Assembly (NCBI RefSeq): GCF_000022265.1
Contig: NC_011979.1
Span: 3,810,001-3,842,000, forward strand
DNA length: 32,000 nt
Source: Geotalea daltonii FRC-32
GTDB taxonomy: Bacteria; Desulfobacterota; Desulfuromonadia; Geobacterales; Geobacteraceae
Direction: 5' to 3'
Shown: one piece after another, positions 6,393 to 32,000 of the stretch
Position numbering within the stretch: the first letter of the stretch is position 1
Layout of the letters: the number at the start of each line of letters is the position of its first letter
The notes under the pieces: model-generated
Told to the model about the DNA's origin: nothing
Databases searched by the model: none
Seen by the model: the letters and a program-made list of their open reading frames with translations, nothing else
Made by a program: the position numbers and the translations under genes

Positions 6393-6457
6393 TGTCGAAC
6401 CTCCATTTATAATTTTGTGTAAGCTTCCTGTTCCCTTTTTTCAGGCATATAAATACA

Positions 6458-7585
<1,128 letters not shown>

Positions 7586-7593
7586 TTAAACCT

Positions 7594-8625
7594 TCAATAG
7601 ATAAACATCGCATCACCGTAGCTGAAAAAGCGGAACTTTCTCCTGACCGCCTCGGCGTATGCGTTGAAAAGCCTGTCTCGACCTGCAAATGCTGAAACGA
7701 GCATCAGCAGGGTTGATTCCGGCAGATGGAAGTTAGTGATCAGGGCATCCACAGTCTTGAATGCATAACCGGGAACGATGAAAATATCCGCCTCCCCCTC
7801 TTTTGCATCAAGGCTGCCATCTTCTGCAGCGGCGTGTTCCAGAGCCCTGGTGGTTGTCGTACCAAGGGCAATCACACGCTTCCCCGCTTTTTTCCTGTCA
7901 GTGACGGCCTTTGCCGTTGTCTCCGGTATCCGGTAGTATTCCCGGTGCATCCGGTGTTCGCTCAGATCCTTCACCCTGACAGGCATAAATGTGCCAAGCC
8001 CCACGTGCAGGGTCAGAGGCAGGATATCGACCCCCCGTGCCCGAATCTTCTGCAAAAGGCTTTCAGTGAAATGCAGTCCGGCTGTCGGGGCGGCCACAGC
8101 TCCCCGCTCCCGGGCAAATACCGTCTGGTATCTTTCCCCATCGATTACATTTGCCGGTCGGTGGATGTAAGGGGGGAGCGGCATGCTGCCGATCATCTCA
8201 AGGCGGTCGAGAAAGCCTTCTTCAGGAGAAAACGAGACAATCCATGTATCATGCTCGCTCCGCTCCACGATCCGGGCCGTAACCCCTTCCGATAGAAGGA
8301 TCAGCGATCCGGGCGCGGGTGATTTCGAGCACTTTATCAGACATTGCCACACCTGTCCTGCTTCGTCCCTGCGCCTGACAAGGAACACCTCCGCCTTACC
8401 GCCTGTTTCCTTCCGGCCCAGCAGCCTGGCCGGTATCACTTTCGTGTCGTTTATCACCAACAGGTCGCCGGCAACAAAATATTCTGCAATATCGGCCACA
8501 ACGCCTTCACCGATCTCACCGCTTTTCCTGTCGAGGGTCATCAGGCGAGCCGATTCCCTTCGGTGTGCCGGCTCCTGCGCTATCAGCTCCGGCGGGAGAT
8601 GATAATTGAAGTCTTTAAGCTGCAT
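7594..8625 (-). CDS. queA: S-adenosylmethionine:tRNA ribosyltransferase-isomerase
   Basis: 343 aa. N-terminus [19 protein letters not shown], plus the TAGLHFT and FFSYGDAM motifs typical of QueA. Confidence 0.95.
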
Positions 8626-8627
8626 GT

Positions 8628-9785
8628 TCAGTCTGCCGTTATCTTTACCAGCCTGGTGCCTGGATAATAATAGGAAAGAATCTCCCGGTAATCAAAACCG
8701 TCACCGGCCCTCTGTTTTGCCCCCCATTGGCAAAGCCCGACCCCATGCCCGTAACCGACCCCGGCAAAGGTTATACCATCAGCGGAAGAACGGATGTCGA
8801 AATTGGTACTTTTTATGGTGCTGTAGCCGATTGCCTTACGAAAATTGGCGGCACCGATGGTGAGACGGCCCTTTGCCGAAATTACGGCCACATCTTGCAA
8901 CCGGCCGCTCCTGTTATGACGCCCGGTTTTGATTTCCCTCAGGCCTGCAGCCTGATAGCCGGCATTTTTCAGTAAAGATTCCAGCTTTTTCAAAGAAATG
9001 GTCTGCTCCCACTTTACGGATGGTGCGGCAAGACAGTACTTGCAATCAACACCGGGAAGATAAGGCACCACACTTCCCCAGACATTTTCGGCGGCCTCCG
9101 TATGTCCACCGCAACTGGAATGGTAGAATGCCTGAATGACGGCGCCGTCATGGGTAAGCACCTGGCCGGCAGTCTCCTTGACTCCGCGGGCCGCACGGCT
9201 GTCCTCGATGTCGCTACCTGCGTAGACCTGATCCATGACGCTGGATTCCAGATGGTAAAGGGCCCCTTTTCGGGCAGCCTTCTGGTATATGGCATAGGAC
9301 CGGGCAATTACTGCCTGTGCTTTTACGGCCTCTATGGGCCATTGGGAGGAAATCTCGCAATTGATCAGGCCGACCAGATAGTCTTCAAGGGGCAGTTCAT
9401 CGACCACGAGCAATCCCTTGTCGGCAGGAAGAATTTCCAGAACCCCACGATAACCCTTGCCGTTAATGAGCAGGAAGGCAGGTGCGGTTGCCTTCAACCT
9501 GCCTACCGTTCTGTTGTTTACAGAGATACCGTCTCTGACCCTTTTGACATGGATCGGCGTATCGAGCCGCAAAGGCTGACCATCGCCATCCATGAGCAAA
9601 ATACCGTTACCTTCCAGAGAAAAGCTCTCAGCTCCCTTAAAAACCGCCACTCTTATAATTTCAGGCCTTGTGTCGACACCAAGGACAGCAGCAGGGAAAA
9701 GAACCAGCAGGATTATGATACAGAAAACTCTCAAGAAGTTACCTTTATTACGGCCTTTAAACTGGACGATAAGACCATAGAACAC
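8628..9785 (-). CDS. SpoIID/LytB-domain protein (secreted cell-wall amidase enhancer/lytic transglycosylase-like)
   Basis: 385 aa with a hydrophobic signal-like N-terminus ([16 protein letters not shown]) and the SpoIID signature [10 protein letters not shown]. The stop lies 2 nt from the queA start. The start codon is uncertain: GTG 9785 in the track, with an internal TTG also possible. Confidence 0.85.
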
Positions 9786-9855: not shown

Positions 9856-10142
9856 TTACTCATTAATGAAATTCTTCGCCGCGGGAAAGCAGATACCCTT
9901 CGCCGGGAGGTCAGGTGGCTGCTATTGTGTTTCATATTTGCGGTAATCGGAAGTGATCGCCATAGATGCCCTGCAGCTACAGAAGGAGAGAGCACCCGGC
10001 GGAGATTGCAAAATTTGAATGCATTAACAATATCGATCGTTTTGCACAATAAACAGTGCCAATGAAGCAGAATTAACCGCCAAATCACTCAAAACCTTGG
10101 GCAAAATGAGAATGTATGTCCAGCAAGCAGAATACAGGATAG

Positions 10143-12212
10143 ATGATTAATTCTCTTAAGATAAAAATAATAGGGCTTGTTACTGTTACCATCATAGGCA
10201 TCGTCTCGCTTGTCTCCTATGTTACCTACAGACAGCAGAAGGAAATGCTCTATGACATGGCAACTTACAACACCAATGTGCTCAACGAGACGGTGAAAAA
10301 CAGCATCAGCGATGCCATGCGTTCTGGCCGGTCCCAGGAAATAAGTGCCATTTTCAGCCGCCTCCGCTCCAAGGAATTCATCTCATCCCTGCGTATCGTC
10401 GATGAAACGGGCAAGATTCTCATTTCAGCAGATCAGACGGAAATAGGACATTTTCTACCCGAATACGAACGACACGAGCTAAAAACAAATTTTCAGCAAA
10501 AATTCACCCTTTCCGAGAATCGAAGGGTCTTCGATTCTTTCGCCCGTATTCCCAATAATCCTCTCTGCCATAGATGTCACAGTCCGAGCATCAAAACTCT
10601 TGGATTCTTGGAAACTGAACTGTCCATGGGTTATATGGAAAGGTTCCTTGAGAAAGAAAAAAGAACTGCTGCCATTTCTACGGTACTGATCATAGGCTTG
10701 ATCATTATTATGGTTTCGGTATTTCTCATTTTCTATGTGGATAAACCGATCAGGAAATTGATTTCAACCATGGAAGAGGTAGAAAAAGGAAACTTCGACC
10801 ACAGGACCATAATCAGCAGCAGCAATGAAATGCGCATTCTTTCCCAGAGCTTCAATCGAATGGTCGAAAGATTCCGTGACATGATGGAGGCCAATATCGT
10901 CCATGAGAGGGAGCTGGCCCGGGCACAGGAAAAGCTGAGCCACCACCGCGAAACCCACCTGATGAATCAAAAACTGGAAGAACAGATCAAGGAAATCGAA
11001 ACGCTGAATGTCAACCTTGAAGAGCGGATCGAGGAAATCGAAGAAGCAAATTACAAGATTGCCGATCTGGCGGGTGAACTGGAAGACAAGAATACGACCC
11101 TGGAAAATGCCGTTTCCAAGCTATCCACTCTTTACAAGGTAGGCCTGGCCATAAATTCCACCATGGAATCGGAGAGCCTTTTCAAGCTGATTGTGAAAAC
11201 CACTATGGATACACTACGTGCCCAGATCGGCTACATCATTCTTTGGGACCAGGAACAGCATGAGATGCTGATTACAACTCTGATTGGACATGACGGGCTT
11301 TCTCCTTCGGGTACGGTGTTACCCCGGAAACAGTCCAGCGTCTCCAGCTGGGTTATCGAAAACGGCAAGCCGCTGCTCATTGCCGATATCAATCAAGCTC
11401 CGGAGTTTGACCGATTCAGTGCCATGGGTTATGAGCGCAAGACCCTGATCTGCGCTCCTCTCATCGTAAAAAACGAGATTATCGGTACCATTACCGTCGT
11501 CAACAAGATCGACAACTCCACCTACAATCATGAGGAACTGGAACTATTTTCCACCATCGCCGCTCAGGCAAGCATCGCCATCAAAAACGCAAAGCTTTAT
11601 GACGAGCAGCAAAAGACCTATCTGAACACCATTCAGGCCCTTGTATCGGCCATTGAAGCCAGCGACAGCTATACCCGTGGCCATTCCGAGCGGGTTACCT
11701 ACTATAGCCTGGAACTGGCCAAGAAACTGGAGCTGCCCCAGGATCGTCTCAAGATCATCGAAAGGGCAGCGATTCTCCACGATATAGGCAAGATAGGCAT
11801 TGACCTGACCTTGCTCCACAAGGAAGGAAGGCTGACTGCGGAGGATATCAACGATCTTCAGCAGCACCCCACCATCGGCATGAAGATCCTCGAGCCGATA
11901 GAGTTTCTTCAGGATGTAAGGCTTTGCATCGGTCAACACCATGAACGCTACGATGGCCAGGGTTATCCCAACTCCATTCCCGCATCCGGATTGCTCCTTG
12001 AATCAAAAATTCTCGCCATAGCCGACGCCTTTGATGCAATGACCTCAGACCGCCCCTACCGTAAGGCTCTACCGGTCGAGGTGGCCATCAATGAGTTGTA
12101 CAGCAACGCCGGCACCCAGTTCGACCCCGAACTTGTACCTCACTTTGTGGACCTTCTCAAGGATTCCCAATTTCAGAGCAGCAGGGTAGGCAGAGCCACT
12201 GCCATGGCGTGA
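10143..12212 (+). CDS. Membrane-bound signalling protein: periplasmic CXXCH sensor loop - HAMP - coiled coil - GAF - HD-GYP (predicted c-di-GMP phosphodiesterase)
   Basis: 689 aa. TM helices at about aa 8-29 and 175-198 bracket a ~145-aa loop containing CHRCH (10566-10580). HAMP-like segment KPIRKLISTMEEVEKGNF... A long heptad-rich linker follows, then a GAF-like region, then the HD-GYP signatures HDIGKIGI and HHERYDGQGYP. Confidence 0.9.
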   Translation: MINSLKIKIIGLVTVTIIGIVSLVSYVTYRQQKEMLYDMATYNTNVLNETVKNSISDAMRSGRSQEISAIFSRLRSKEFISSLRIVDETGKILISADQTEIGHFLPEYERHELKTNFQQKFTLSENRRVFDSFARIPNNPLCHRCHSPSIKTLGFLETELSMGYMERFLEKEKRTAAISTVLIIGLIIIMVSVFLIFYVDKPIRKLISTMEEVEKGNFDHRTIISSSNEMRILSQSFNRMVERFRDMMEANIVHERELARAQEKLSHHRETHLMNQKLEEQIKEIETLNVNLEERIEEIEEANYKIADLAGELEDKNTTLENAVSKLSTLYKVGLAINSTMESESLFKLIVKTTMDTLRAQIGYIILWDQEQHEMLITTLIGHDGLSPSGTVLPRKQSSVSSWVIENGKPLLIADINQAPEFDRFSAMGYERKTLICAPLIVKNEIIGTITVVNKIDNSTYNHEELELFSTIAAQASIAIKNAKLYDEQQKTYLNTIQALVSAIEASDSYTRGHSERVTYYSLELAKKLELPQDRLKIIERAAILHDIGKIGIDLTLLHKEGRLTAEDINDLQQHPTIGMKILEPIEFLQDVRLCIGQHHERYDGQGYPNSIPASGLLLESKILAIADAFDAMTSDRPYRKALPVEVAINELYSNAGTQFDPELVPHFVDLLKDSQFQSSRVGRATAMA

Positions 12213-12335: not shown

Positions 12336-13298
12336 TTGCCAACTCTCCTCCAGGTACAAAATCTTACCGTCAACTTCAGAGTCCCCCAGGGAACCCTGCA
12401 GGCTGTCAGCGGTGTCAGTTTTTCTCTCGACAGGGGCGAAACACTGGCCATTGTCGGCGAATCCGGCTGCGGCAAAAGCGTAACCGCCTACTCCATAATG
12501 GGGCTGGTTGCGTCGCCGGGCAATATAGCTGCCGGAGAAATAGTCTTTGCCGGCAGGGACCTGCTCAGGCTCGATGAGCAGGAGATGCGCAAAATCAGGG
12601 GTGACCGGATTGCCATGATTTTCCAGGAACCCATGACCTCTCTCAATCCGGTGCTTTCCGTAGGCACGCAGATCATCGAGGGCTTGCGGCTCCATCGCGG
12701 CCTGTCCCGGCGGGAAGCCAGGGAGGCAGGAATCGGCCTGCTCGAACAGGTGGGCATTGCCTCCTCAGCCGTGCGATTTGATGAATATCCGCACCAGATG
12801 AGCGGGGGCATGCGGCAACGGGTCATGATTGCCATGTCCATTGCCTGCAATCCCGAACTCCTTATCGCCGATGAACCGACAACAGCACTGGACGTAACCA
12901 TTCAGGCACAGATACTGGAACTAATGGACCGGCTGAAAAGGGAAAACCGGATGGGAATGATCCTGATAACCCATGATTTGGGAATAGTAGCAGAACGTTC
13001 ACACCGCACGGCGGTCATGTACGCAGGGAAGATTGTCGAATACGGCCCGACGGGGGAAATATTACGCAAGCCGGGCCACCCGTATACCGAGGGGCTGCTT
13101 AAATCTCTTCCCCAGGACACCAAACCTGGTCAGCCACTGCAGACAATATTCGGATCTGTCCCGGATCTCCTGGTCAGACAGCCCGGCTGCGGATTTTGCA
13201 ACCGCTGTCCGGGGAAGGACTGGCACTGTGAAACAGCTGAACCGGAAATGAAAGAAATCGCCGGCGGCCACTTTGTCCGCTGCTGGAAAGTCCAATGA
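12336..13298 (+). CDS. Dipeptide/oligopeptide-type ABC transporter ATP-binding protein (DppD/OppD-like)
   Basis: 320 aa. Walker A GESGCGKS, signature MSGGMRQR, Walker B LLIADEPTTALD, H-loop ITHDL, and an Opp/Dpp C-terminal extension with Cys pattern CGFCNRCP...C...C. TTG start with a weak SD. Confidence 0.9.
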   Translation: MPTLLQVQNLTVNFRVPQGTLQAVSGVSFSLDRGETLAIVGESGCGKSVTAYSIMGLVASPGNIAAGEIVFAGRDLLRLDEQEMRKIRGDRIAMIFQEPMTSLNPVLSVGTQIIEGLRLHRGLSRREAREAGIGLLEQVGIASSAVRFDEYPHQMSGGMRQRVMIAMSIACNPELLIADEPTTALDVTIQAQILELMDRLKRENRMGMILITHDLGIVAERSHRTAVMYAGKIVEYGPTGEILRKPGHPYTEGLLKSLPQDTKPGQPLQTIFGSVPDLLVRQPGCGFCNRCPGKDWHCETAEPEMKEIAGGHFVRCWKVQ

Positions 13299-14269
13299 AC
13301 ACGCTCATTGAGGCAAAATCCCTTGCTAAACATTTTCCTGTAAAGGCCGGCCAGTTCGGCAGGCAACAGCTATTGAAAGCAGTTGACGGAATAGATCTGC
13401 ATATCGGTAAAGGGGAAACTCTCGGCGTGGCAGGAGAATCCGGCTGCGGCAAATCTACCGTAGCAAAACTGCTGATGGGCCTGATAAAGCCATCTGGCGG
13501 GAGCATCACCTACCAGGGGAAGAGCCTGGTTGACATGGGCAAGGTAGAGCGCGCCTCCTTTCGCAAAACCGTGCAGATGATTTTTCAGGATCCGTTCTCT
13601 TCCCTGAATCCTCGCATGAGAGTGGGAGATATCATCGGCGAGCCGTTCACCGTTCATGGCCTTGCATCCGGTGCCCGCAAAAGGGATCTGGTAATTGGCC
13701 TCATGGCAAAGGTCGGCCTGTCGGAAGAGCATTTTTACCGGTATCCCCACGAGTTTTCGGGGGGACAGAGGCAGAGAATCGGCATTGCCAGGGCACTTGC
13801 CGTTTCACCGAAGCTGCTCATCGCCGATGAACCGGTCTCTGCCCTGGATATTTCGATCCAGGCGCAGATCATCAATCTGCTCATGGAACTGAAGCGGGAA
13901 TATGGCCTTTCCTTCCTCTTCATAACCCATGATCTCTCCGTGATCCGTCATCTGAGTGACCGGATAGCCATCATGTACCTGGGAAAGGTGGTGGAATCGG
14001 GGACCAGAGACGAAGTGCTGGACCGGTATCTCCATCCCTACACCCAAGCGCTTCTCTCGGCAGTGCCGCGTATTGATCCCGACAGGACAACCGGAAGAAT
14101 AGTCCTCCAGGGTGACCTGCCTTCACCCATCCATCCGCCGTCCGGTTGTCCCTTCCATACCCGCTGTCCCTATGCCGAGAATATCTGCAGCAAGGAACCG
14201 CCGCCTCTGGAGGAAAAGGAACCTGAGCACCTGGCCGCCTGCCATTTCAGTCAAAAGCTGTTTCGCTGA
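13295..14269 (+). CDS. Dipeptide/oligopeptide-type ABC transporter ATP-binding protein (DppF/OppF-like)
   Basis: 324 aa. Walker A GESGCGKS, signature FSGGQRQR, Walker B LLIADEPVSALD, and C-terminal GCPFHTRCPYAENIC motif. ATGA overlap with the upstream ATPase indicates translational coupling. Confidence 0.9.
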   Translation: MNTLIEAKSLAKHFPVKAGQFGRQQLLKAVDGIDLHIGKGETLGVAGESGCGKSTVAKLLMGLIKPSGGSITYQGKSLVDMGKVERASFRKTVQMIFQDPFSSLNPRMRVGDIIGEPFTVHGLASGARKRDLVIGLMAKVGLSEEHFYRYPHEFSGGQRQRIGIARALAVSPKLLIADEPVSALDISIQAQIINLLMELKREYGLSFLFITHDLSVIRHLSDRIAIMYLGKVVESGTRDEVLDRYLHPYTQALLSAVPRIDPDRTTGRIVLQGDLPSPIHPPSGCPFHTRCPYAENICSKEPPPLEEKEPEHLAACHFSQKLFR

Positions 14270-24105: not shown

Positions 24106-24144
24106 ACGGGCGGGGGATTTGGATTCCCCGCCCGTTTCTCTTTT
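24106..24144. terminator. Bidirectional rho-independent terminator between convergent pfkA and the giant ORF
   Basis: 10-bp GC-rich stem ACGGGCGGGG/CCCCGCCCGT (24106-24135) followed by TTTCTCTTTT on the plus strand. On the minus strand it lies 10 nt after the giant ORF stop and is followed by a T-rich run. Confidence 0.75.
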
Positions 24145-24145
24145 C

Positions 24146-27100
24146 CTACTGCATAACCCTGATCAGATCGACCCCTTCGAAGACCACAGAGCCGACCTTG
24201 CCGGTAACATGCACCGGAACCCTGTCACCGCTCGGCAGCAGGTTAATCACCTCGCTCCGCCTGAACTTCACCATCAGATCTTTGATGCCGTCCTTGTCGC
24301 AATCGCCGACGGCGTAGGGACGAAGCTCTGCCGATATTGCCCCTTCAAGCCTGATGGATGCAATGTCGATGTCTGAAGGATTGTAGCCCTCCGGCAGTTC
24401 GATGCGCACGGTGACCCAGGTGCCGTTGCTCTTGGGATTGAGGGTATCGGGGTCGAAGTCGATGGTGGCGCCTATGCTTGTCACCGGCAAATGCACGGTG
24501 AAGCTCGCCATATGGGACCAGGCACCGTAGAGGGCACCGTCGAATGCCCTGGCACGCCACTGGTATGCGGTGTTGTCGGTAAGGGGTGTATTCAGGGTAA
24601 CGGAGGTCATCCCTGAGGCGTCCTGGGGGATGCCTGTGACTGTCGCTGCCAGTGTCGGGCCCGCATAGATCTCGAAGTCGTAGCCTTGTATGGAGCTGTC
24701 GGGATCTGCGGCATTGGCAATGGTCAGGGTCGGTGTCGGCGTTGAAACACTGCTCCCTTCGGCAGGCAAGGCCGGTTTAGGTGCGCCGGGGGCATCGTTG
24801 GCGGTGTTGACCATGAAGCTCATCGCTTGAGTCCATTTATCGCTGGTGAGGTAACCATCGAAGGCGCGCGCCCGCCAGTAATAGGTCTGGTTCTCCGTCA
24901 GTGTCACCGGAACCGTCCAACTGGTGACTGCGGCTGTCTCAATGACACCGGCTGCCCGGCTGACGAGGCTGGTCAAGGCAGCATCGGCATAGACCTCAAA
25001 CTCGTAGGTCAGTGGATCATGGTCAAGGTCGGCGGCATTGTGCACCGACAAGGTCGGGCTGTATTGATTCACCCCTGCCCCATCGGAGGGATTGGCCGGT
25101 GTGGGAGTCGTGGGTGGATCGTTGACGGTATTGGCAAAGAAGCTGATGGTTTCCGACCAGGTGCTTTCCGCTGCCCCGTCACTTGCCTTGGCGCGAAGGT
25201 AATAACGGGTGTTGTCCGAAAGACCGCTCAGATTCCAGGTGGTGCTCCCCTCCCCTTGGGGAATGCTGCCTGAGCGGACGATATTAGGCGAATCGAAGGT
25301 CGGTACCGTATCCGCTTCGAAGAAATAGGTAATGACAGACGAATCGGGATCGGTGCTGTTGGTGACGACCACATGGGTTGTCAAAGCGGCCACAGTCGAG
25401 CCGTTGAGGGGTGCCGTGATGACCGGTGTCGTCGGGGCATCGTTGGCGGTGTTGACCTGGAAGCGCACCGTTTGCGACCAGGGTCCTTCCATCTGCCAGT
25501 CGTCGGCCTGGGCTCGCCAATGGTACCAGCCGTTCTCCTGGAGGGTCACAGGTACGGTCCAGGAGGTGGTCGCTTCTCCGGAAGCAACGCCGGGGGTTGA
25601 GGCTATGATGTTGGTGAACTCGGGATCCAGTGCGACGGCGAAGTTGTAGGTGAGGCTGGTGCTGTCGGGGTCTGAAGAGTTGTTGATGGTCAGCGTTGGA
25701 CTTGACAGTGCCACAGCGGTACCGTCTGCAGGGGCGGAAACGGTCGGCGCTGTCGGGGGATCGTTGATGGTGTTGACCCGGAAGGAGACGGCAGGCATCC
25801 ACGGGCCGTACAGTTTGCCGTCAAAGGCACGGGAGCGCCAGTAGTATGTCTGGTTCTCAATCAGAGCTGCCGGCGTCCAGATGGTCATGTTTGCGGTTTC
25901 CGGTGCCTGTCCGGAGGCGGCAAGGTTGGTCAGGCCGCTGTCGGTGTAGACCTCGAATTGATAGGTGAGCCGGTCGTCGTTGGGATCGGCGGCATTGCTG
26001 ACGGTAAGCTGCGGCGTCAGGGTTTCCACGTCGGCTCCACTAATTGGGCTTACCAGCGCCGGGGCCGAAGGTGCGCCTTCCACGCGGAAATAGGTGCCGG
26101 CGAGGGTTTCCTCTACCCCGTCGATGGTTGCTCGCAGGATAACCAGGTAGTCCTTGGCGCCGTAGTTCTGGGTATCGATTTGGCCGGTTCCTGAATGGAT
26201 TTGCCCCATGGCGAGGCTGGCCGTGTCGGGGATGGGGTTATAGGTGGTCTGGTCGCTTATGTTGATCGTCTGCACTGACAGGGGGATGTTGACAAGGTCC
26301 GTGTTCCCGATGTTGGTAACGGTGTATGAAACGGCTACCGGTTCTCCGGTCAGGATGCTCTGCTTGTCGAGGGTTACCTGTCCTTTCAGGAGAGCGGTGG
26401 GCTTCGTGATGCTGCCAATGACCAGATTACAGGTGGATTTGGTGATAACGGTGCCGGTGTTGTTCAGGATCTGCATTGTTACCAGGTAGGTTGCCGCCGG
26501 GTTGGCTCCCACGTTCCAGTATTTATTGATGGTGGTGGTTTGGCCCTGGTTAAGCTGGGGGATAGAAGTCGTATCGGTGTAGAGGGCCTGCCCCTGGCTG
26601 TTGGTGATGGTTACCAGCAAGGAGAGGTTCTCCATGTAGGTGTTTGCTGTAAGCGTTCCTGTCAGATTTGCCTGATCATTGGGGTTGTAGGCGATCTTGT
26701 CGGTGACTATTTTGCCGGTAACGCTGGCGGCTATTGGCGGTGCGGTGTACGCCACGGTTTTGGTGAGGGTCCGGCTCAGGTCGCCGGTGATGGTGAAGGT
26801 GTAGGTAGTGTCGGCTGCGATCTGTTGAGTGTACTGGACCGATCTTGTCTCTCCGGCAGGGATGGTTATTGTCTCTGCCGTGGTATCGAATGATTTGGCA
26901 ACGGCAATGACCGCTTCTATCTTGCCGCTGTTGGTGAGGACAAGGCTCACCTGGAACGGGTCGGCTCCTGCGCTGTCGGGGGCGGTGAGTGCCGCAGTGA
27001 CCATGGGGCTTGACGCTTCATATTGTTCGGTGATGTCGGCAATGATGACACTATTCTGGGTTACCGCTCCTTTGAGCGTATAAATGCCGTCGCTGCCTGC

Positions 27101-30100
27101 TGTGGTGGTAAAGCTGAACGGACGGCTGCCGTTGGCCGCAATGTCGAAGGTGTCAGTATAGAGGGTTGCCCCTTGGTTATCCTTCACCTGCAGGGCAAGG
27201 GCTGCTGCCAGGCTGGTGATGTTCCTGACTTCGCCGCTTATGGTCACTGTTTCGCCCGGTTTGTAGATCTTCTTGTCGGGTGAGAGAAGTAGCTGGAAGT
27301 TCCCCTGTTCGATGTAGAAGGGGTATTCGGCGGAGGCAACGGCTTGTCCGGTGCTGGAGGTGAGGGTGCCCTGGAAGTAGAGCTTGCCCAGAACACCCAG
27401 GGTGCCGATGGTTTTATTCAGGTCAGCGACGGCTACTGGAGCAAGATCGACGGGCACGTCCGTCTGCCAGAGCACTTCGCCCGGGTCGGCCAGGTAGGTG
27501 ACGGTGAGATCGTTGAGCAGTGGCGTTACATTGGTATCGGTTGTAGCCAGCGTGGCCTCCACCTCGATCCACCGGGCGGCGGGATTAGTGATTGGTGAAC
27601 CGCTTGCGGTGATGTAGTCGCTCCAGATGGCGGTGGTGAGGCCGGCTTCGGTGTCGGCGGTGCGGGTGCGGAATTTGATGGAGGTGCCGGTGGGTTGGGT
27701 GGTGTTAAAATTTATTTTCCCCCAACTGGTATTCGCCGCGCCAGAGTCTTGCTTTAAAGTCACTACTCCTGCACTGGCATATACACCGTTTTCTGTATAA
27801 AAAGCATCTACATCAACAGATGCTGACTCATCAAGTAAGGTATCAGCATTCGTAGTTAAAATTCTGATAGTTGCTGGTCCGGTTTCCATGCCAGATTTCA
27901 AATGATATGTGCTCCACATAGCACCATCCCAGTACTCTGCGTAGGCAGAGGTTCCCGTTCTTCGAAGCTTGAAATAGCCAGAAACCCAGTTACTCGGGGG
28001 TACACTAGAAGCCCACCAGTTACTATTAATATAGGAGTTAGCCTGCAGTTGAGGAAGTTTTGATGGATAAATGTTTGTCTCATAAAGCCAAAAACCTGAT
28101 GAAGGACCCGTCTTGGCCGTGAGGTAATGGCCTATATCCCCTTCCGGATGCGATCTAACGACGGTGAATTTAGCGTTTTTATACTTTTCAATGGCTGCAA
28201 AATCACCTGGCAGGGAAGCTTTTAAAAAAACAGAAGTCGCGCCATTACCATCACTTTTTTGATGCATAAGACCGTTAGCTTCAGTTGGCAAGTAAACTCC
28301 AGCGGATCTCCATCTATCCTCATTCAGCACTCCATCGTCAAAATTATCATTCAGTGGTAGTAGTCTAGCCGAGTCCACTGTCTGGTTTACTGTCATGATC
28401 CGGCCGGAGCTGATTTTGAAATTATCCCAATGAGTTTCAACAGGGTTATTATACCCATTGTTGGTGGTCCACAGTCTTACATTTAAGGGGCCATCCCAAA
28501 TATTTGTTGACCATAGTTGTTTCCAGGCACCATTTTCCCAGCAATATGCAATTGCTGTAGTCCCATTTCTAGTAATTCGAAGCTTACCGCTGGAATCGGT
28601 TGTACTAAGATTAGGGCTATGATTCCATGAACTTCCATTCCAATAATCGGCACTATAAACATTCTGGCCATAGGATATTTTGCGTTCTACACGAAACTCA
28701 CGATTTGCTGCCTCGATCCTGAGTAAGGCCCAGAACTCACCAGAAGAAGGGTTTACCAAGCTAAAATCAACCTGAACATCGAAATCACCTTGTAATTGAG
28801 AAGAAGCGTTTCCCACAAGACTCGCATATCCCGCCCCCGGACCTGCCGATTGTATTAAAACACCGGTGCTTTCTTGTTGTTTACTGGTGCCATAGTTGTC
28901 TTCTACCCATTTACCTGTGTCAATACGATCATCGTCAAAATCATCATCCGGAATAATCCAGTCATTGACCCCGTAGGTGTCCACCCCATTACGCACACCG
29001 GTCTGGAAATCGGCTTGGGTAATCCAGGTCTTCTGCTTGTAGCTCCCCGGCCCGGTGACCACCTGCAGATGCACATTCCCCCCCTGCAAGGGGGTGCCGG
29101 TGTTGGTTATTGCGCCGAGGCCGGTGATGTTCTCGGTTGCCAGATAGACCTCTTTATCTGTTTGCATCTGAAGGCTGGCTTTTATCCCAGCGATGCTGAG
29201 TGCATAGGGAACAATTTTTTCTACAGTTGTTTTACCATCCTTGAATTGGACGTTGAGGGTATAGGTACCATCCACAGCACCGACCGGAATGGGCAGGCCA
29301 AGGGGAATAGAAGACCCAGCTACTGCAATCTCGGTAGCTGATTTTTCGGCAATGAGTGTTGCCTTTGCATCATAAAGGCTGGCTTGGTAGTCAACTGGTG
29401 TATCAATGCCGCCGGTATTTGCAATTACCACTGTAATTGTATTTCCGGCGCTATAGGCGGTCTTGGCCACTGTTGAGGTCAAGGATGATTCCGGAACAGC
29501 CCAGAAGGCTTTTTCCGTAACCTCTGATCCGGAAGGAAGGCGAAGAGTAACGGTGGCAGGATGTAGACCGGCATTTACCGTTTCCGGAACTGGGAAACTG
29601 TAGATGACTGCAGTGCCAGAAGCCGAAATACCTGCAGGAAGAAATTTGGTTTCAGTATAGGTTGCATCCGGGATGGATACGGTGGCAGTTAATCCGGTAT
29701 CGAGGCTGAACTTACCGGTGTTGGTTATGACAACGGTGAGATTGCCTGCTTCCCTGATGCGATAGGTGCTTTTATCGAAGGAAGCATTAATGTCAACGGT
29801 ATTGGTCAGCACCACTTCAACCGGCTTGATCGTTCTGGTTTCATCGCTCAGGATATAGGACAGGGTATAGGTACCCAATTTCAGAACTGCAGTACTCACA
29901 TTATAGGTAAGCATCTTGCTCTCAGCCAATGCAAGGCTCAAGGCCTGGGAGGAGCTATATGCCACCTGCCCATCCGGGTCTTTCAGGGTGACGGCCAGGA
30001 CGCCTGACGATACGGGAATGGTACCGGTATTGGTCAGGTTGAATGTCACGGTATTGGTGGTGGAGAAGGTGGTCGGCAATGTTGGGCTTATGGATACTTC

Positions 30101-32000
30101 ACTAACGGCAGAACCGAAGCTGTTCGAAGCGGTTTGCATGATATTACCGGCCTCGGAGTATAGCTCGGCCTGGATCAGATAATTTCCAGACACTGCATTT
30201 TGCGGCATGACAAAGCTGACAGTCTGTGCAACATCGCCATCTGCCGCTAAACTCAGTGAAACTGTCGTATCGAATACTTTAGCGACATAGGGATCTAGTA
30301 CCCTTACATGGAGGAGTGGCGAGAGGTCTAACGACTGCTTGTTGTGAATGTTTACCGTAACAGGGACGGTTTCTCCAGACTTGTAAAGCGCCTGGTCAAC
30401 TTTGACAGTCATATCGGCAGAGGGGGTAATCATCATGGCAAGAGCGGGACTGAAGATGAACGTCTCACCAGGAGCGAGGGTACTGCCGATGCGGGCACTG
30501 AAATACCCTTCAGCACCTGCGGAAATGGTTACATCTCCAGGAGTTATGTCAGTAATTGCATAGGTTCCGCCTGCTAACGTCGCTGCTTTCAATGTTGTAT
30601 TTCCGGTTGCTGTCTCCATTACGGCACCGGCAAATGGTGCATCGGAGCCGGCATTCCTCACCACGCCCTGCACGGATGCTGAAACAGTGCCGGTGGATAG
30701 GACAATTGTTCCGGCATTGGTAGTCGCTCCAGCGGTAATGTAGGTCTTCAAGGTACGTGGAGTATAACCATCCAGGGCAACCGTTATCTGCTGCATTCCG
30801 TAATGAATGCCATTCAGGGCAAACGTACCGGTGCTGTTCGTCACAGTGCTAACTTTAGGATCGTTGGTCAAGGACAAGGCTACACCTGCAAGAGGTAGAG
30901 AAGTCACCGCATCAACCACCGTCCCGCTAATACCTCCGTTTGTCACCAATGGGGTGAGAGCAATATCCATGGTCTGGAGCCATGGCTGCTTCCCAACGGT
31001 GTAGGATTTGCCCACATATCCGACAGAGAAGGCCTTGACGGTTATCTCGGCATCGTTGATGTCGGCTATGGCATAGGTACCGGCAAAGTCGGTGCGGGAG
31101 GTCAGGTTGCCCGGTTGAACCATAACTTCCGCCCCCGGAATGGGCAACCCGCTCTTTGCATCGGTCACCTTGCCGGTCAGGGTCATCAAGAAAGACATCT
31201 CCAGGCGGATCGTGCCCAAATCTGTGGTAGTGCCGGCAGAAATCACCACCCGGAAGGTATGGCTGGCGAAACCATGCATACCCACGACCACCTGGTAGGT
31301 CCCCGGCTGCAGGTTGGCGATAGTAAAGTACCCGCCCCCTTCCGGTTCGACCGAAACCGACGTCCCTCCGGAGACGATCACCTGCACCCCAGTCTCTTCC
31401 GGCAGATGCCCGATGGGCCTACCCCAGAAGCTGTCCACCACTCGGCCCACCAGGGTGCCTGTTGTAGCCGTTGGTGGGGAGGTGCTCAAACGCGGAGAAA
31501 AGGTAAGCGTCGTTCGGGCGTAGACAGTGCCGGTGGAGGTCAAGGCTTGATAGCCTGCCTTCTCGGCAGTGATAGTGACATCGCCAGGGGTGACATAGGT
31601 AAAGGTGAAGCCTCCGTCGGCTCCGGTTGTGGCAGTGCCGCTCCAGGCCCCTGATACTGTGATTGCCACACCAGCCAGCGGCTTACCTGTGGGGTCGGTC
31701 ACGGTGCCGGCGATGGTACCGGTGGAATAAGCGGAAAGCAGGGAGATGGTTCCGAGGCTAGAGGTTGCCCCTGCAACAGCGGTTGTGGATGCGCTGTTTG
31801 CGGCATAGCCAGAGAGTGTAAAGGTCAGCTTCTGCGTACCTGTTGGTACATCGGCCAACGCAAAGCTGCCGGTGGCGTCGGTGGTTGCGGCAAAGAGGGT
31901 GTTGCCGTCAATCGCCACCGCTACGCCGCTCACCGGCCTCTTTGTCACCGCATCGATCACTGTGCCGGTAATTGTAGCACCAAGCGGCGGCGCCGGAGGC
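24146..32000 (-). CDS. Giant modular extracellular/cell-surface protein (adhesin- or S-layer-associated-like); 5' end lies outside the window
   Basis: The ORF is open from TAG (24146-24148) to the window edge. The track start at 31960 is an internal GTG, because the 13 upstream codons (..PPAPPLGATITGT) are in frame with no stop. At least 2617 aa are visible. The protein is made entirely of beta-sandwich-type modules (see findings), is Thr/Ala/Gly/Val/Ser-rich, and I count only three Cys. Confidence 0.85.
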   Translation of the reverse strand, partial: PPAPPLGATITGTVIDAVTKRPVSGVAVAIDGNTLFAATTDATGSFALADVPTGTQKLTFTLSGYAANSASTTAVAGATSSLGTISLLSAYSTGTIAGTVTDPTGKPLAGVAITVSGAWSGTATTGADGGFTFTYVTPGDVTITAEKAGYQALTSTGTVYARTTLTFSPRLSTSPPTATTGTLVGRVVDSFWGRPIGHLPEETGVQVIVSGGTSVSVEPEGGGYFTIANLQPGTYQVVVGMHGFASHTFRVVISAGTTTDLGTIRLEMSFLMTLTGKVTDAKSGLPIPGAEVMVQPGNLTSRTDFAGTYAIADINDAEITVKAFSVGYVGKSYTVGKQPWLQTMDIALTPLVTNGGISGTVVDAVTSLPLAGVALSLTNDPKVSTVTNSTGTFALNGIHYGMQQITVALDGYTPRTLKTYITAGATTNAGTIVLSTGTVSASVQGVVRNAGSDAPFAGAVMETATGNTTLKAATLAGGTYAITDITPGDVTISAGAEGYFSARIGSTLAPGETFIFSPALAMMITPSADMTVKVDQALYKSGETVPVTVNIHNKQSLDLSPLLHVRVLDPYVAKVFDTTVSLSLAADGDVAQTVSFVMPQNAVSGNYLIQAELYSEAGNIMQTASNSFGSAVSEVSISPTLPTTFSTTNTVTFNLTNTGTIPVSSGVLAVTLKDPDGQVAYSSSQALSLALAESKMLTYNVSTAVLKLGTYTLSYILSDETRTIKPVEVVLTNTVDINASFDKSTYRIREAGNLTVVITNTGKFSLDTGLTATVSIPDATYTETKFLPAGISASGTAVIYSFPVPETVNAGLHPATVTLRLPSGSEVTEKAFWAVPESSLTSTVAKTAYSAGNTITVVIANTGGIDTPVDYQASLYDAKATLIAEKSATEIAVAGSSIPLGLPIPVGAVDGTYTLNVQFKDGKTTVEKIVPYALSIAGIKASLQMQTDKEVYLATENITGLGAITNTGTPLQGGNVHLQVVTGPGSYKQKTWITQADFQTGVRNGVDTYGVNDWIIPDDDFDDDRIDTGKWVEDNYGTSKQQESTGVLIQSAGPGAGYASLVGNASSQLQGDFDVQVDFSLVNPSSGEFWALLRIEAANREFRVERKISYGQNVYSADYWNGSSWNHSPNLSTTDSSGKLRITRNGTTAIAYCWENGAWKQLWSTNIWDGPLNVRLWTTNNGYNNPVETHWDNFKISSGRIMTVNQTVDSARLLPLNDNFDDGVLNEDRWRSAGVYLPTEANGLMHQKSDGNGATSVFLKASLPGDFAAIEKYKNAKFTVVRSHPEGDIGHYLTAKTGPSSGFWLYETNIYPSKLPQLQANSYINSNWWASSVPPSNWVSGYFKLRRTGTSAYAEYWDGAMWSTYHLKSGMETGPATIRILTTNADTLLDESASVDVDAFYTENGVYASAGVVTLKQDSGAANTSWGKINFNTTQPTGTSIKFRTRTADTEAGLTTAIWSDYITASGSPITNPAARWIEVEATLATTDTNVTPLLNDLTVTYLADPGEVLWQTDVPVDLAPVAVADLNKTIGTLGVLGKLYFQGTLTSSTGQAVASAEYPFYIEQGNFQLLLSPDKKIYKPGETVTISGEVRNITSLAAALALQVKDNQGATLYTDTFDIAANGSRPFSFTTTAGSDGIYTLKGAVTQNSVIIADITEQYEASSPMVTAALTAPDSAGADPFQVSLVLTNSGKIEAVIAVAKSFDTTAETITIPAGETRSVQYTQQIAADTTYTFTITGDLSRTLTKTVAYTAPPIAASVTGKIVTDKIAYNPNDQANLTGTLTANTYMENLSLLVTITNSQGQALYTDTTSIPQLNQGQTTTINKYWNVGANPAATYLVTMQILNNTGTVITKSTCNLVIGSITKPTALLKGQVTLDKQSILTGEPVAVSYTVTNIGNTDLVNIPLSVQTINISDQTTYNPIPDTASLAMGQIHSGTGQIDTQNYGAKDYLVILRATIDGVEETLAGTYFRVEGAPSAPALVSPISGADVETLTPQLTVSNAADPNDDRLTYQFEVYTDSGLTNLAASGQAPETANMTIWTPAALIENQTYYWRSRAFDGKLYGPWMPAVSFRVNTINDPPTAPTVSAPADGTAVALSSPTLTINNSSDPDSTSLTYNFAVALDPEFTNIIASTPGVASGEATTSWTVPVTLQENGWYHWRAQADDWQMEGPWSQTVRFQVNTANDAPTTPVITAPLNGSTVAALTTHVVVTNSTDPDSSVITYFFEADTVPTFDSPNIVRSGSIPQGEGSTTWNLSGLSDNTRYYLRAKASDGAAESTWSETISFFANTVNDPPTTPTPANPSDGAGVNQYSPTLSVHNAADLDHDPLTYEFEVYADAALTSLVSRAAGVIETAAVTSWTVPVTLTENQTYYWRARAFDGYLTSDKWTQAMSFMVNTANDAPGAPKPALPAEGSSVSTPTPTLTIANAADPDSSIQGYDFEIYAGPTLAATVTGIPQDASGMTSVTLNTPLTDNTAYQWRARAFDGALYGAWSHMASFTVHLPVTSIGATIDFDPDTLNPKSNGTWVTVRIELPEGYNPSDIDIASIRLEGAISAELRPYAVGDCDKDGIKDLMVKFRRSEVINLLPSGDRVPVHVTGKVGSVVFEGVDLIRVMQ
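24485..26074 (-). repeat. Five tandem ~100-108-aa FN3-like coding repeats of the giant ORF
   Basis: Unit lengths are 108, 107, 107, 108 and 100 aa. The shared skeleton is P..G..V....PTL.V.N..DPD...LTY.FE.....F/L........W.V...L.EN..YYWRA.A.DG....W.....F.VNT.ND.P..P. Confidence 0.7.
27700..28965 (-). other. Low-GC cassette inside the giant ORF encoding two tandem ConA/LamG-like jelly-roll domains
   Basis: Hand counts of 60-nt lines give 35% (28021), 35% (28621), 40% (27841) and 45% (28441). Flanking lines give 57% (27361) and 62% (25441). The translation contains two paralogous ~190-aa units opening DDFDDDRIDTGKW and NDNFDDGVLNEDRW. Confidence 0.7.
30440..32000 (-). repeat. At least 6 tandem carboxypeptidase-regulatory-like (CarboxypepD_reg/transthyretin-like) coding repeats of the giant ORF
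   Basis: Units of about 80-90 aa recur with openings such as ITGTVIDAVTKRPVSGVAV, IAGTVTDPTGKPLAGVAI, LTGKVTDAKSGLPIPGAEV, ISGTVVDAVTSLPLAGVAL and VQGVVRNAGSDAPFAGAVM. Each is followed by a ..D..G.F.. and ..G.Y.. pattern. Boundaries are approximate. Confidence 0.6.

Follow-up and report, generated by a model that had tools for sequence, protein, structure and literature searches.

A giant modular protein of Geotalea daltonii with a predicted Sec signal peptide, an N-terminal toroid, variable LamG modules and a candidate pseudo-transglutaminase partner

Introduction

Among the genes of environmental bacteria, those for giant repeat proteins belong to the least understood, and giant modular binding proteins are an already known class. 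Fibrillar adhesins have a stalk-plus-head design and include giants built of Ig, FN3 and CarboxypepD_reg domains. The Lap/Bpf systems pair a giant adhesin with a transglutaminase (TG)-like protease (PMC8543385), and the type II bacterial alpha-2-macroglobulin (A2M) complex, Mag, unites MagD with MagA, MagB and MagF, the thioester-less MagD being held at the inner membrane by the transmembrane protein MagB (PMC5764988). Here we analyze a giant gene at the end of a 32,000-nucleotide stretch of Geotalea daltonii FRC-32 DNA (NCBI RefSeq assembly GCF_000022265.1, contig NC_011979.1, positions 3,810,001 to 3,842,000 of the forward strand), the whole of which we call the window and number from 1.

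We tentatively favor the reading that the product is an envelope-tethered fibrillar binding protein, in which an N-terminal toroid would dock on a membrane partner, beta-sandwiches would form a stalk and a pair of LamG modules would set specificity. The toroid head, the obligatory pseudo-transglutaminase partner, the exchange of internal low-GC cassettes and the terminal domain that lacks a model appear to be undescribed so far.

Results

The gene and its module order

A minus-strand frame is open for 2617 codons from position 31999 to a stop at 24146-24148 and leaves the window at its other end; the true register starts at base 31999, base 32000 being out of frame. A search of 5.8 billion proteins found its translation to be 100% identical to a G. 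daltonii FRC-32 protein of 2901 amino acids (aa; ACM21808.1 / WP_012648536.1 / B9M5P9), so that the giant open reading frame (ORF) of at least 2617 visible aa posited by the original prediction stands, with 90% of the gene inside the window. The fragment is covered over its full length (100%) by about 25 orthologues, which are 2890-2970 aa long and 48-59% identical to it; seven shorter ones (2716-2755 aa) lack one module. DNA repeats within the gene are short and diverged (60-85% identity over 47-56 nt, period 321-324 nt). Together with the full-length orthologues, these diverged repeats indicate that the ORF is real and rule out the collapsed-repeat assembly artefact that the original prediction had raised as a possibility, and of which we saw no sign. 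The protein is acidic (pI 4.6) and contains 13% Thr, 8.5% Ser and only 3 Cys in 2901 aa.

The product comprises about 25 domains overall, ordered from the N-terminus as a Sec signal peptide, the toroid, a Pro-rich linker, six CarboxypepD_reg units, five MG2/CARDB-like Ig units, two LamG modules, a small sandwich, about four Ig units, five FN3-like repeats and a terminal Ca-loop sandwich. Repeat units were delimited by self-trained hidden Markov models (HMMs) built from an alignment of 32 orthologues and iterated against the proteins, with independent E-values (iE) as given below. The following features lie in the window:

24146..31999, minus strand: giant gene, visible part, 2617 codons plus stop; the first 284 codons lie past the window
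31979..31999, minus strand: end of the Pro-rich linker (..PSPPPAPPLGA), joining the off-window toroid to the first CarboxypepD_reg unit
30455..31978, minus strand: six CarboxypepD_reg (transthyretin-like) units (Pfam PF13620, 191.8 bits over six stretches; self-trained HMM)
31742-31978, 31496-31720 and 31205-31459, minus strand: CarboxypepD_reg units 1-3
30974-31183, 30701-30937 and 30455-30679, minus strand: CarboxypepD_reg units 4-6
28994..30412, minus strand: five Ig-like units of MG2/CARDB type (self-trained HMM, iE 1e-22 to 9e-12; Pfam MG2, 56.7 bits, weak CARDB)
28367..28954, minus strand: LamG/ConA-like jelly roll 1 (LamG1), variable candidate cassette, absent in 7 of 32 orthologues (DUF1583_C, 30 bits)
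27782..28366, minus strand: LamG/ConA-like jelly roll 2 (LamG2), variable candidate cassette, the least conserved segment of the protein
27482..27781, minus strand: conserved beta-sandwich of about 95 aa, W.KINF..P.GTSIKFRTRTA..ARWIEVEA; no Pfam model matches
26072..27469, minus strand: second Ig block, three MG2/CARDB-like units with one divergent unit between and a short leader
27056-27292, 26462-26716 and 26126-26383, minus strand: units of the second Ig block detected by self-trained HMM
24482..26065, minus strand: five FN3-like repeats of 105-108 aa (self-trained HMM, iE 1e-34 to 7e-44; DNA period 321-324 nt)
24149..24481, minus strand: terminal Ig-like sandwich, 112 aa, with DCDKDG as its DxDxDG loop; neither Pfam nor NCBIfam has a model

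This order reproduces the originally predicted module map nearly unit for unit. Pfam supports the CarboxypepD_reg units and MG2 (69.8 bits), and the second Ig block holds at least three further Ig units and probably four. The FN3-like repeats follow the motif NDPP..P..P.dG..DPD...L.Y.F........W.vP..L.EN..YyWRArA.D and draw only sub-threshold hints from Pfam (Ig_Rha78A_N, fn3, PhoD_N), and LamG2, the small sandwich and the last 112 aa have no Pfam match. Scans of the full-length protein with Pfam, NCBIfam and motifs revealed no catalytic domain or motif, and neither an RTX GGxGxD, LPxTG, CxEQ, CXXCH or lipobox motif nor a matching Pfam family was found; no lattice-forming or anchoring domain was recognized either. 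The absence of a catalytic domain and of known anchoring motifs (RTX, LPXTG, PEP-CTERM and others), first noted for the visible part, thus extends to the whole protein.

A Sec signal peptide and an alpha/alpha toroid precede the visible part

The 284 residues past position 32000 had been expected to hold any signal peptide, and they do: the full-length N-terminus, MLNRNLIIIVAIVFNLATFAHA/QLPQ, has the make-up of a classical Sec signal peptide, its positive n-region being joined by a hydrophobic core of 14 residues and an AxA site, and this pattern is kept across the orthologue alignment. Residues 23-280 form an alpha/alpha toroid of about 255 aa that is matched by Pfam SQHop_cyclase_C/N, Prenyltrans and TED_complement and by solved terpene cyclases at E-values from 2e-20 (PDB 7xq4) to 4e-13 (PDB 2sqc). 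Two statements made from the visible part, that the protein is all-beta and that it has no recognizable secretion signal, therefore fail for the whole protein.

The toroid carries QW-like Q-N-x-D-G-G-W repeats, SSNVYMT stands where the cyclase has its catalytic SDVDDT, and no CxEQ thioester occurs anywhere in the 2901 aa. With the DxDD acid motif replaced and CxEQ missing, the toroid is neither a cyclase nor a thioester domain. Identity as a class II terpene cyclase is further rejected by its single barrel of about 255 aa in place of the two-barrel beta-gamma arrangement. We consider it most likely, judging from these alignments, that the toroid is a binding module rather than an enzyme.

The giant gene is accompanied by a pseudo-transglutaminase gene

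Housekeeping genes flank the giant gene to one side, and a gene for a Transglut_core protein lies to the other. We considered the 17 related loci for which the upstream sequence reached 3 kb or more. In every one of them, for instance at 6409-9465 of locus L005, a Transglut_core protein of about 740-1220 aa is encoded upstream and on the same strand as the giant gene; the 17 loci belong to Geobacterales, Desulfuromonadales and Nitrospirota/Thermodesulfovibrionales (two phyla). These related loci showed no other conserved neighbor and no conserved small ORF between partner and giant gene. A Desulfuromonas locus (L042) has the reverse order, the giant gene being followed after 29 nt by the TG gene. 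In G. daltonii the partner orthologue is a protein of 991 aa (ACM21809.1 / WP_012648537.1 / B9M5Q0) whose GenBank, RefSeq and UniProt accessions are consecutive with those of the giant protein. Adjacency is here taken from accession order, not from DNA; on that basis ACM21809.1 is the next gene past the window edge, where the original prediction had placed any partner gene.

The partner consists of an N-terminal signal or anchor, a K/E-rich coiled-coil stretch, a TG core and about 600 conserved residues without a known model, and eight of ten orthologues examined end in two to four hydrophobic, transmembrane-like segments. A HMMER alignment places Ala where the TG-like protease of PDB 3isr has its catalytic Cys. 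Among 125 partner sequences the nucleophile position is occupied by Ala (89), Asp (25) or Ser (9), while His is kept in 120 and Asp in all 125. An active Cys-His-Asp transglutaminase or cysteine protease is thereby rejected: with its nucleophile replaced and His and Asp conserved, the partner is a pseudo-transglutaminase, and cross-linking or LapG-like cleavage of the giant by it is unlikely.

Distant relatives of the TG partner (L043, L045) adjoin other giants that share the N-terminal prenyltransferase-like toroid and carry different distal modules, either NHL/Glucodextran_B or CARDB with discoidin and FG-GAP. One locus of the distant partner family has no giant gene nearby. Since the TG-fold partner and the toroid stay constant while the distal modules differ, the toroid may be the constant interface. 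Orthologues from Nitrospirota/Thermodesulfovibrionales metagenome-assembled genomes (MAGs) match the G. daltonii protein just as closely (53-59%) as do those of Geobacteraceae (49-56%); three MAGs contain two loci each (L016/L017, L018/L019, L011/L028), and some loci have two tandem TG genes. This suggests cross-phylum transfer and paralogue expansion of the locus.

The LamG pair varies independently of its scaffold

An AlphaFold2 model of residues 1275-1795 (predicted local distance difference test score, pLDDT, 77) comprises a pair of jelly rolls plus a small sandwich. Foldseek matched it best (E 1e-8 to 1e-6, probability 1.00) to glycoside hydrolase (GH) family 43 C-terminal sandwiches, laminin LG4-5, neurexin LNS, Gas6 LG pairs, galectin, BoNT Hc and a GH16 lichenase. 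The carbohydrate-binding module (CBM) of an alginate lyase is a further structural match. Searching PDB sequences with a profile of the region gave nothing significant.

Column identity among orthologues is 0.21-0.43 in the LamG modules versus 0.55-0.75 elsewhere in the protein. A sharply bounded low-GC island (window 27750-28900, 40-47% GC versus 55-62% on both sides) coincides exactly with the two modules, and the trough lies at synonymous sites, GC3 being 0.37 in LamG1 and 0.35 in LamG2 versus 0.71-0.74 in the flanking modules. Two other orthologues with two LamG modules have the same trough, and an orthologue with a single LamG module does not. LamG1 identity is uncorrelated with scaffold identity (Spearman 0.05), and the similarities of LamG1 and LamG2 are uncorrelated with each other (0.07), as individual orthologue pairs illustrate:

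P0010 and P0016: scaffold 82%, LamG1 35%, LamG2 27%
P0007 and P0016: scaffold 80%, LamG1 77%, LamG2 25%
P0004 and P0005: scaffold 67%, LamG1 83%, LamG2 30%
P0030 and P0032: scaffold 55%, LamG1 absent, LamG2 73%

Near-invariant junction peptides bracket the modules. We detected no silent LamG copies in the window and no close relatives of the G. daltonii LamG cassette in JGI metagenome contigs. We read this pattern of identity and composition as independent replacement of the LamG modules, as cassettes from a low-GC pool. Such independent exchange and the low GC would make the LamG pair the probable specificity determinant.

The terminal module belongs to a large family without a model

In a set of 1.84 billion representative proteins, a profile of the last 116 aa matched 6291 representative clusters with E<=1e-3, 4073 of them reaching E<=1e-10, and neither Pfam nor NCBIfam holds a model for the module. 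In 109 of the best 150 matches, no more than 6 residues lie between its end and the C-terminus. Where about 100 residues follow it, these are mostly a C-terminal domain (CTD) of the type IX secretion system (T9SS) type. Its companion domains (PKD, NosD/beta-helix, LamG_3, CARDB, LVIVD and propellers) are typically extracellular, and its carriers include Planctomycetota and Bathyarchaeota, the family thus spanning bacteria and archaea. A homologue search with the module returned mainly short fragments. AlphaFold2 predicts an Ig-like sandwich (pLDDT 81), for which Foldseek returned generic Ig-like matches only (best E 9e-3, TM-score about 0.45) and no convincing PDB neighbor, and the profile likewise found nothing significant among PDB sequences. 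One loop of the module alternates between DxDxDG and His-rich inserts among relatives (P0199-P0346).

The rest of the window

The remaining genes are of housekeeping type: cation efflux, recJ, secDF-yajC, tgt, queA, a SpoIID-like gene, an HD-GYP-type protein, two oligopeptide ABC ATPases, an ArsR-family gene, pmbA, a GNAT gene, recN, nadK, glgP, mgsA/rarA and pfk. Searching the window for RNA genes yielded neither an Rfam family nor a tRNA. Convergent pfk and the giant gene are separated by one feature, which is likely a terminator shared by both:

24106..24135, no strand assigned: GC-rich 13-bp hairpin followed by a T tract

The HD-GYP-type gene (10143-12212, plus strand) encodes a HAMP-GAF-HD_5 signaling protein, and compared with the rest of the window the GC content of its first kilobase is unusually low (0.43 at 10001-11000). 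Two adjacent oligopeptide/dipeptide-type ABC ATPase genes (ABC_tran plus oligo_HPY) and then an ArsR-family regulator occupy 12336-14269 on the plus strand, with no permease or binding-protein gene alongside the ATPase genes within the window.

Discussion

The envelope-tethered reading and its weak points

If the giant is an envelope-tethered fibrillar binding protein, Sec would export it, its conserved N-terminal toroid would dock on the membrane-anchored pseudo-transglutaminase and the giant would thereby be held at the cell envelope, with about 20 beta-sandwich domains strung together into a long stalk. Binding of the ligand, probably a glycan or another surface polymer, and its specificity would fall to the LamG pair; each of the two modules could be swapped independently by recombination at the near-invariant junction peptides, the cassettes coming from a low-GC pool that Geobacterales and Nitrospirota would have in common. 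The tandem stalk domains typical of fibrillar adhesins are present (six CarboxypepD_reg, about nine Ig and five FN3-like), and the two LamG-fold modules, which vary like specificity determinants, are candidate adhesive domains. The extracellular company of the C-terminal module (PKD, NosD, LVIVD, CARDB, T9SS CTD) supports an adhesin-like envelope protein, and a location at the cell surface is plausible.

Several points weigh against this reading. A Sec signal takes a protein of a diderm only to the periplasm, and in the neighborhoods examined no type II (T2SS), type V (T5SS) or other outer-membrane secretion route is linked to the locus. A partner that is anchored in the inner membrane is no less compatible with a periplasmic complex than with a surface fiber, and G. 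daltonii's own partner has a less hydrophobic C-terminus with no clear transmembrane segment. Docking of toroid and partner is something we infer from co-occurrence only. The LamG assignment is made by fold, with weak sequence support (DUF1583_C, 30 bits, for LamG1). Finally, the gene is annotated yet never studied: literature searches by accession and by Geobacter/daltonii plus transglutaminase found no paper that mentions the giant protein or its partner.

Alternative readings

The main rival, which we consider unlikely, is a periplasmic envelope-guard complex similar to Mag, in which the thioester-less giant would be kept at the inner membrane by its transmembrane partner and would trap or sense invading proteases or other molecules. 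The MG2-type domains, the TED-like toroid without a thioester, the Sec signal peptide and a conserved partner with transmembrane helices all fit it, as do the precedent of MagD at the inner membrane and the GenBank label of ACM21808.1, "alpha-2-macroglobulin domain protein". That label is misleading. The toroid is N-terminal and not inserted near the C-terminus, only MG2 among the A2M-type Pfam models passes its cut-off, and the A2M_BRD, A2M and A2M_recep domains are missing (A2M_BRD 12.7 bits, E 0.17). A phmmer search of PDB sequences with the whole protein at E<=0.01 returned only terpene cyclases, prenyltransferases and a chance P450, and thus no solved A2M. There is no lipobox, and neither pbpC (type I) nor any of magABCDEF (type II) is nearby; half of the protein consists of CarboxypepD_reg, LamG, FN3 and a terminal domain found elsewhere on clearly extracellular proteins, and swapping of lectin-fold cassettes is not expected of a protease trap. 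Our low estimate for this rival reflects a domain order that does not fit, the absence of bait and receptor domains and the failure to match any solved A2M. Outright membership in the bacterial A2Ms, type I or II, is rejected by the absence of the CxEQ motif of type I and by the position of the TED-like toroid at residues 23-280, right after the signal peptide, where the canonical order is MG1-7, bait region, CUB/TED and C-terminal receptor-binding domain.

Less likely than a Mag-like complex are the two other readings. A secreted, unanchored carbohydrate-binding or -processing scaffold, released for example by a T2SS to bind extracellular polysaccharide or mineral-associated organics, would account for jelly rolls that resemble CBM-like and GH-associated sandwiches (GH43 C-terminal, GH16, alginate-lyase CBM) and for a terminal module that co-occurs with NosD/beta-helix and LamG_3 proteins; however, the protein has no catalytic domain or motif and the strictly conserved membrane partner favors tethering, so that we hold this reading to be improbable. 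Least probable of all is a structural surface-layer (S-layer) or sheath component forming a glycosylated S-layer-like coat, suggested by the acidic, Thr- and Ser-rich composition with almost no Cys and by a partial NCBIfam match in the CarboxypepD_reg region to the anammox S-layer glycoprotein Kustd1514, because that match covers repeat units only, no lattice-forming or anchoring domain is recognized, and the patchy distribution, the two copies in three MAGs and the hypervariable cassettes better fit an accessory binding protein.

No characterized adhesin or S-layer family, the kind of match that the original prediction had named as refuting it, covered the whole architecture. The Kustd1514-type family itself (NF052345) is rejected at 55.5 bits against a cut-off of 1400. 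A Lap/Bpf-type RTX adhesin of the type I secretion system (T1SS) is excluded by the lack of GGxGxD and of a HemolysinCabind match, by the Sec signal and by a partner without the catalytic Cys. T9SS cargo is excluded because there is no Por_Secre_tail match in Pfam and because elsewhere the terminal module precedes the T9SS CTD and does not replace it. Readings as an LPXTG, PEP-CTERM-like, lipoprotein or multihaem protein fail for want of the motifs in the full-length protein, and PADLOC returned no anti-phage defence match for the giant or its partner.

Implications

Generalizing from the envelope-tethered reading, the locus may represent an envelope system of two components, so far undescribed, that serves anaerobic diderms (Geobacterales, Desulfuromonadales, Nitrospirota). 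In it a membrane-anchored, catalytically dead TG-fold protein would dock Sec-exported giants with interchangeable payloads by way of their cyclase-derived N-terminal toroid; we regard this broader proposal as possible and, on balance, doubtful. If it holds, giant binding proteins can be tethered without T1SS, T5SS or sortase, the payload in G. daltonii would be two lectin-like cassettes from a low-GC pool common to several phyla, and the 112-aa terminal module would stand for a large domain family that has no model yet. The pseudoenzyme partner suggests a mode of envelope tethering distinct from the known routes of diderm giant adhesins, and on the cassette reading diversifying selection would act on the LamG modules in subsurface bacteria that cycle metals and sulfur. 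A terminal domain found in more than 6000 protein clusters and lacking a model is useful for annotation. For one giant repeat protein, at least, a concrete and testable anatomy is now available.

Comparison with known systems

Like the fibrillar adhesins, the giant is a long beta-sandwich array with putative lectin-like modules, acidic, Cys-poor and Thr/Ser-rich, and bears a signal peptide. In contrast to them, its binding modules sit mid-chain and not at the tip, it has none of the LPXTG, T1SS, T5SS or pilus types of anchoring, and it adds an N-terminal alpha/alpha toroid and an obligatory pseudo-transglutaminase partner. Tandem ConA-like jelly rolls are common to its LamG pair, to the laminin, neurexin and Gas6 LG pairs and to the CBM-like jelly rolls of glycoside hydrolases, but here they lie inside a bacterial repeat protein, are apparently exchanged as cassettes and have no detectable sequence similarity to solved structures. 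The toroid has sequence homology and QW-like repeats in common with class II terpene cyclases (squalene-hopene cyclase; 7xq4, 2sqc), from which it differs as one barrel behind a signal peptide that has lost DxDD.

With the Mag complex the locus has in common a thioester-less TED-like domain, MG-type domains, a Sec signal and a transmembrane operon partner, whereas the giant has an entirely different domain order without bait, CUB or receptor-binding domains, is twice the size and carries extra LamG, FN3 and CarboxypepD_reg modules. Lap/Bpf is an instructive analogue, since there too a giant repeat protein is genetically coupled to a periplasm-facing transglutaminase-fold protein; yet LapA and BpfA, both of RTX type, lack a Sec signal and are exported through T1SS, and the G. 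daltonii giant bears a Sec signal and is free of RTX repeats. The small protease LapG has an active Cys-His-Asp triad, whereas the partner here is a protein of about 1000 aa that lacks the catalytic Cys and matches only Transglut_core.

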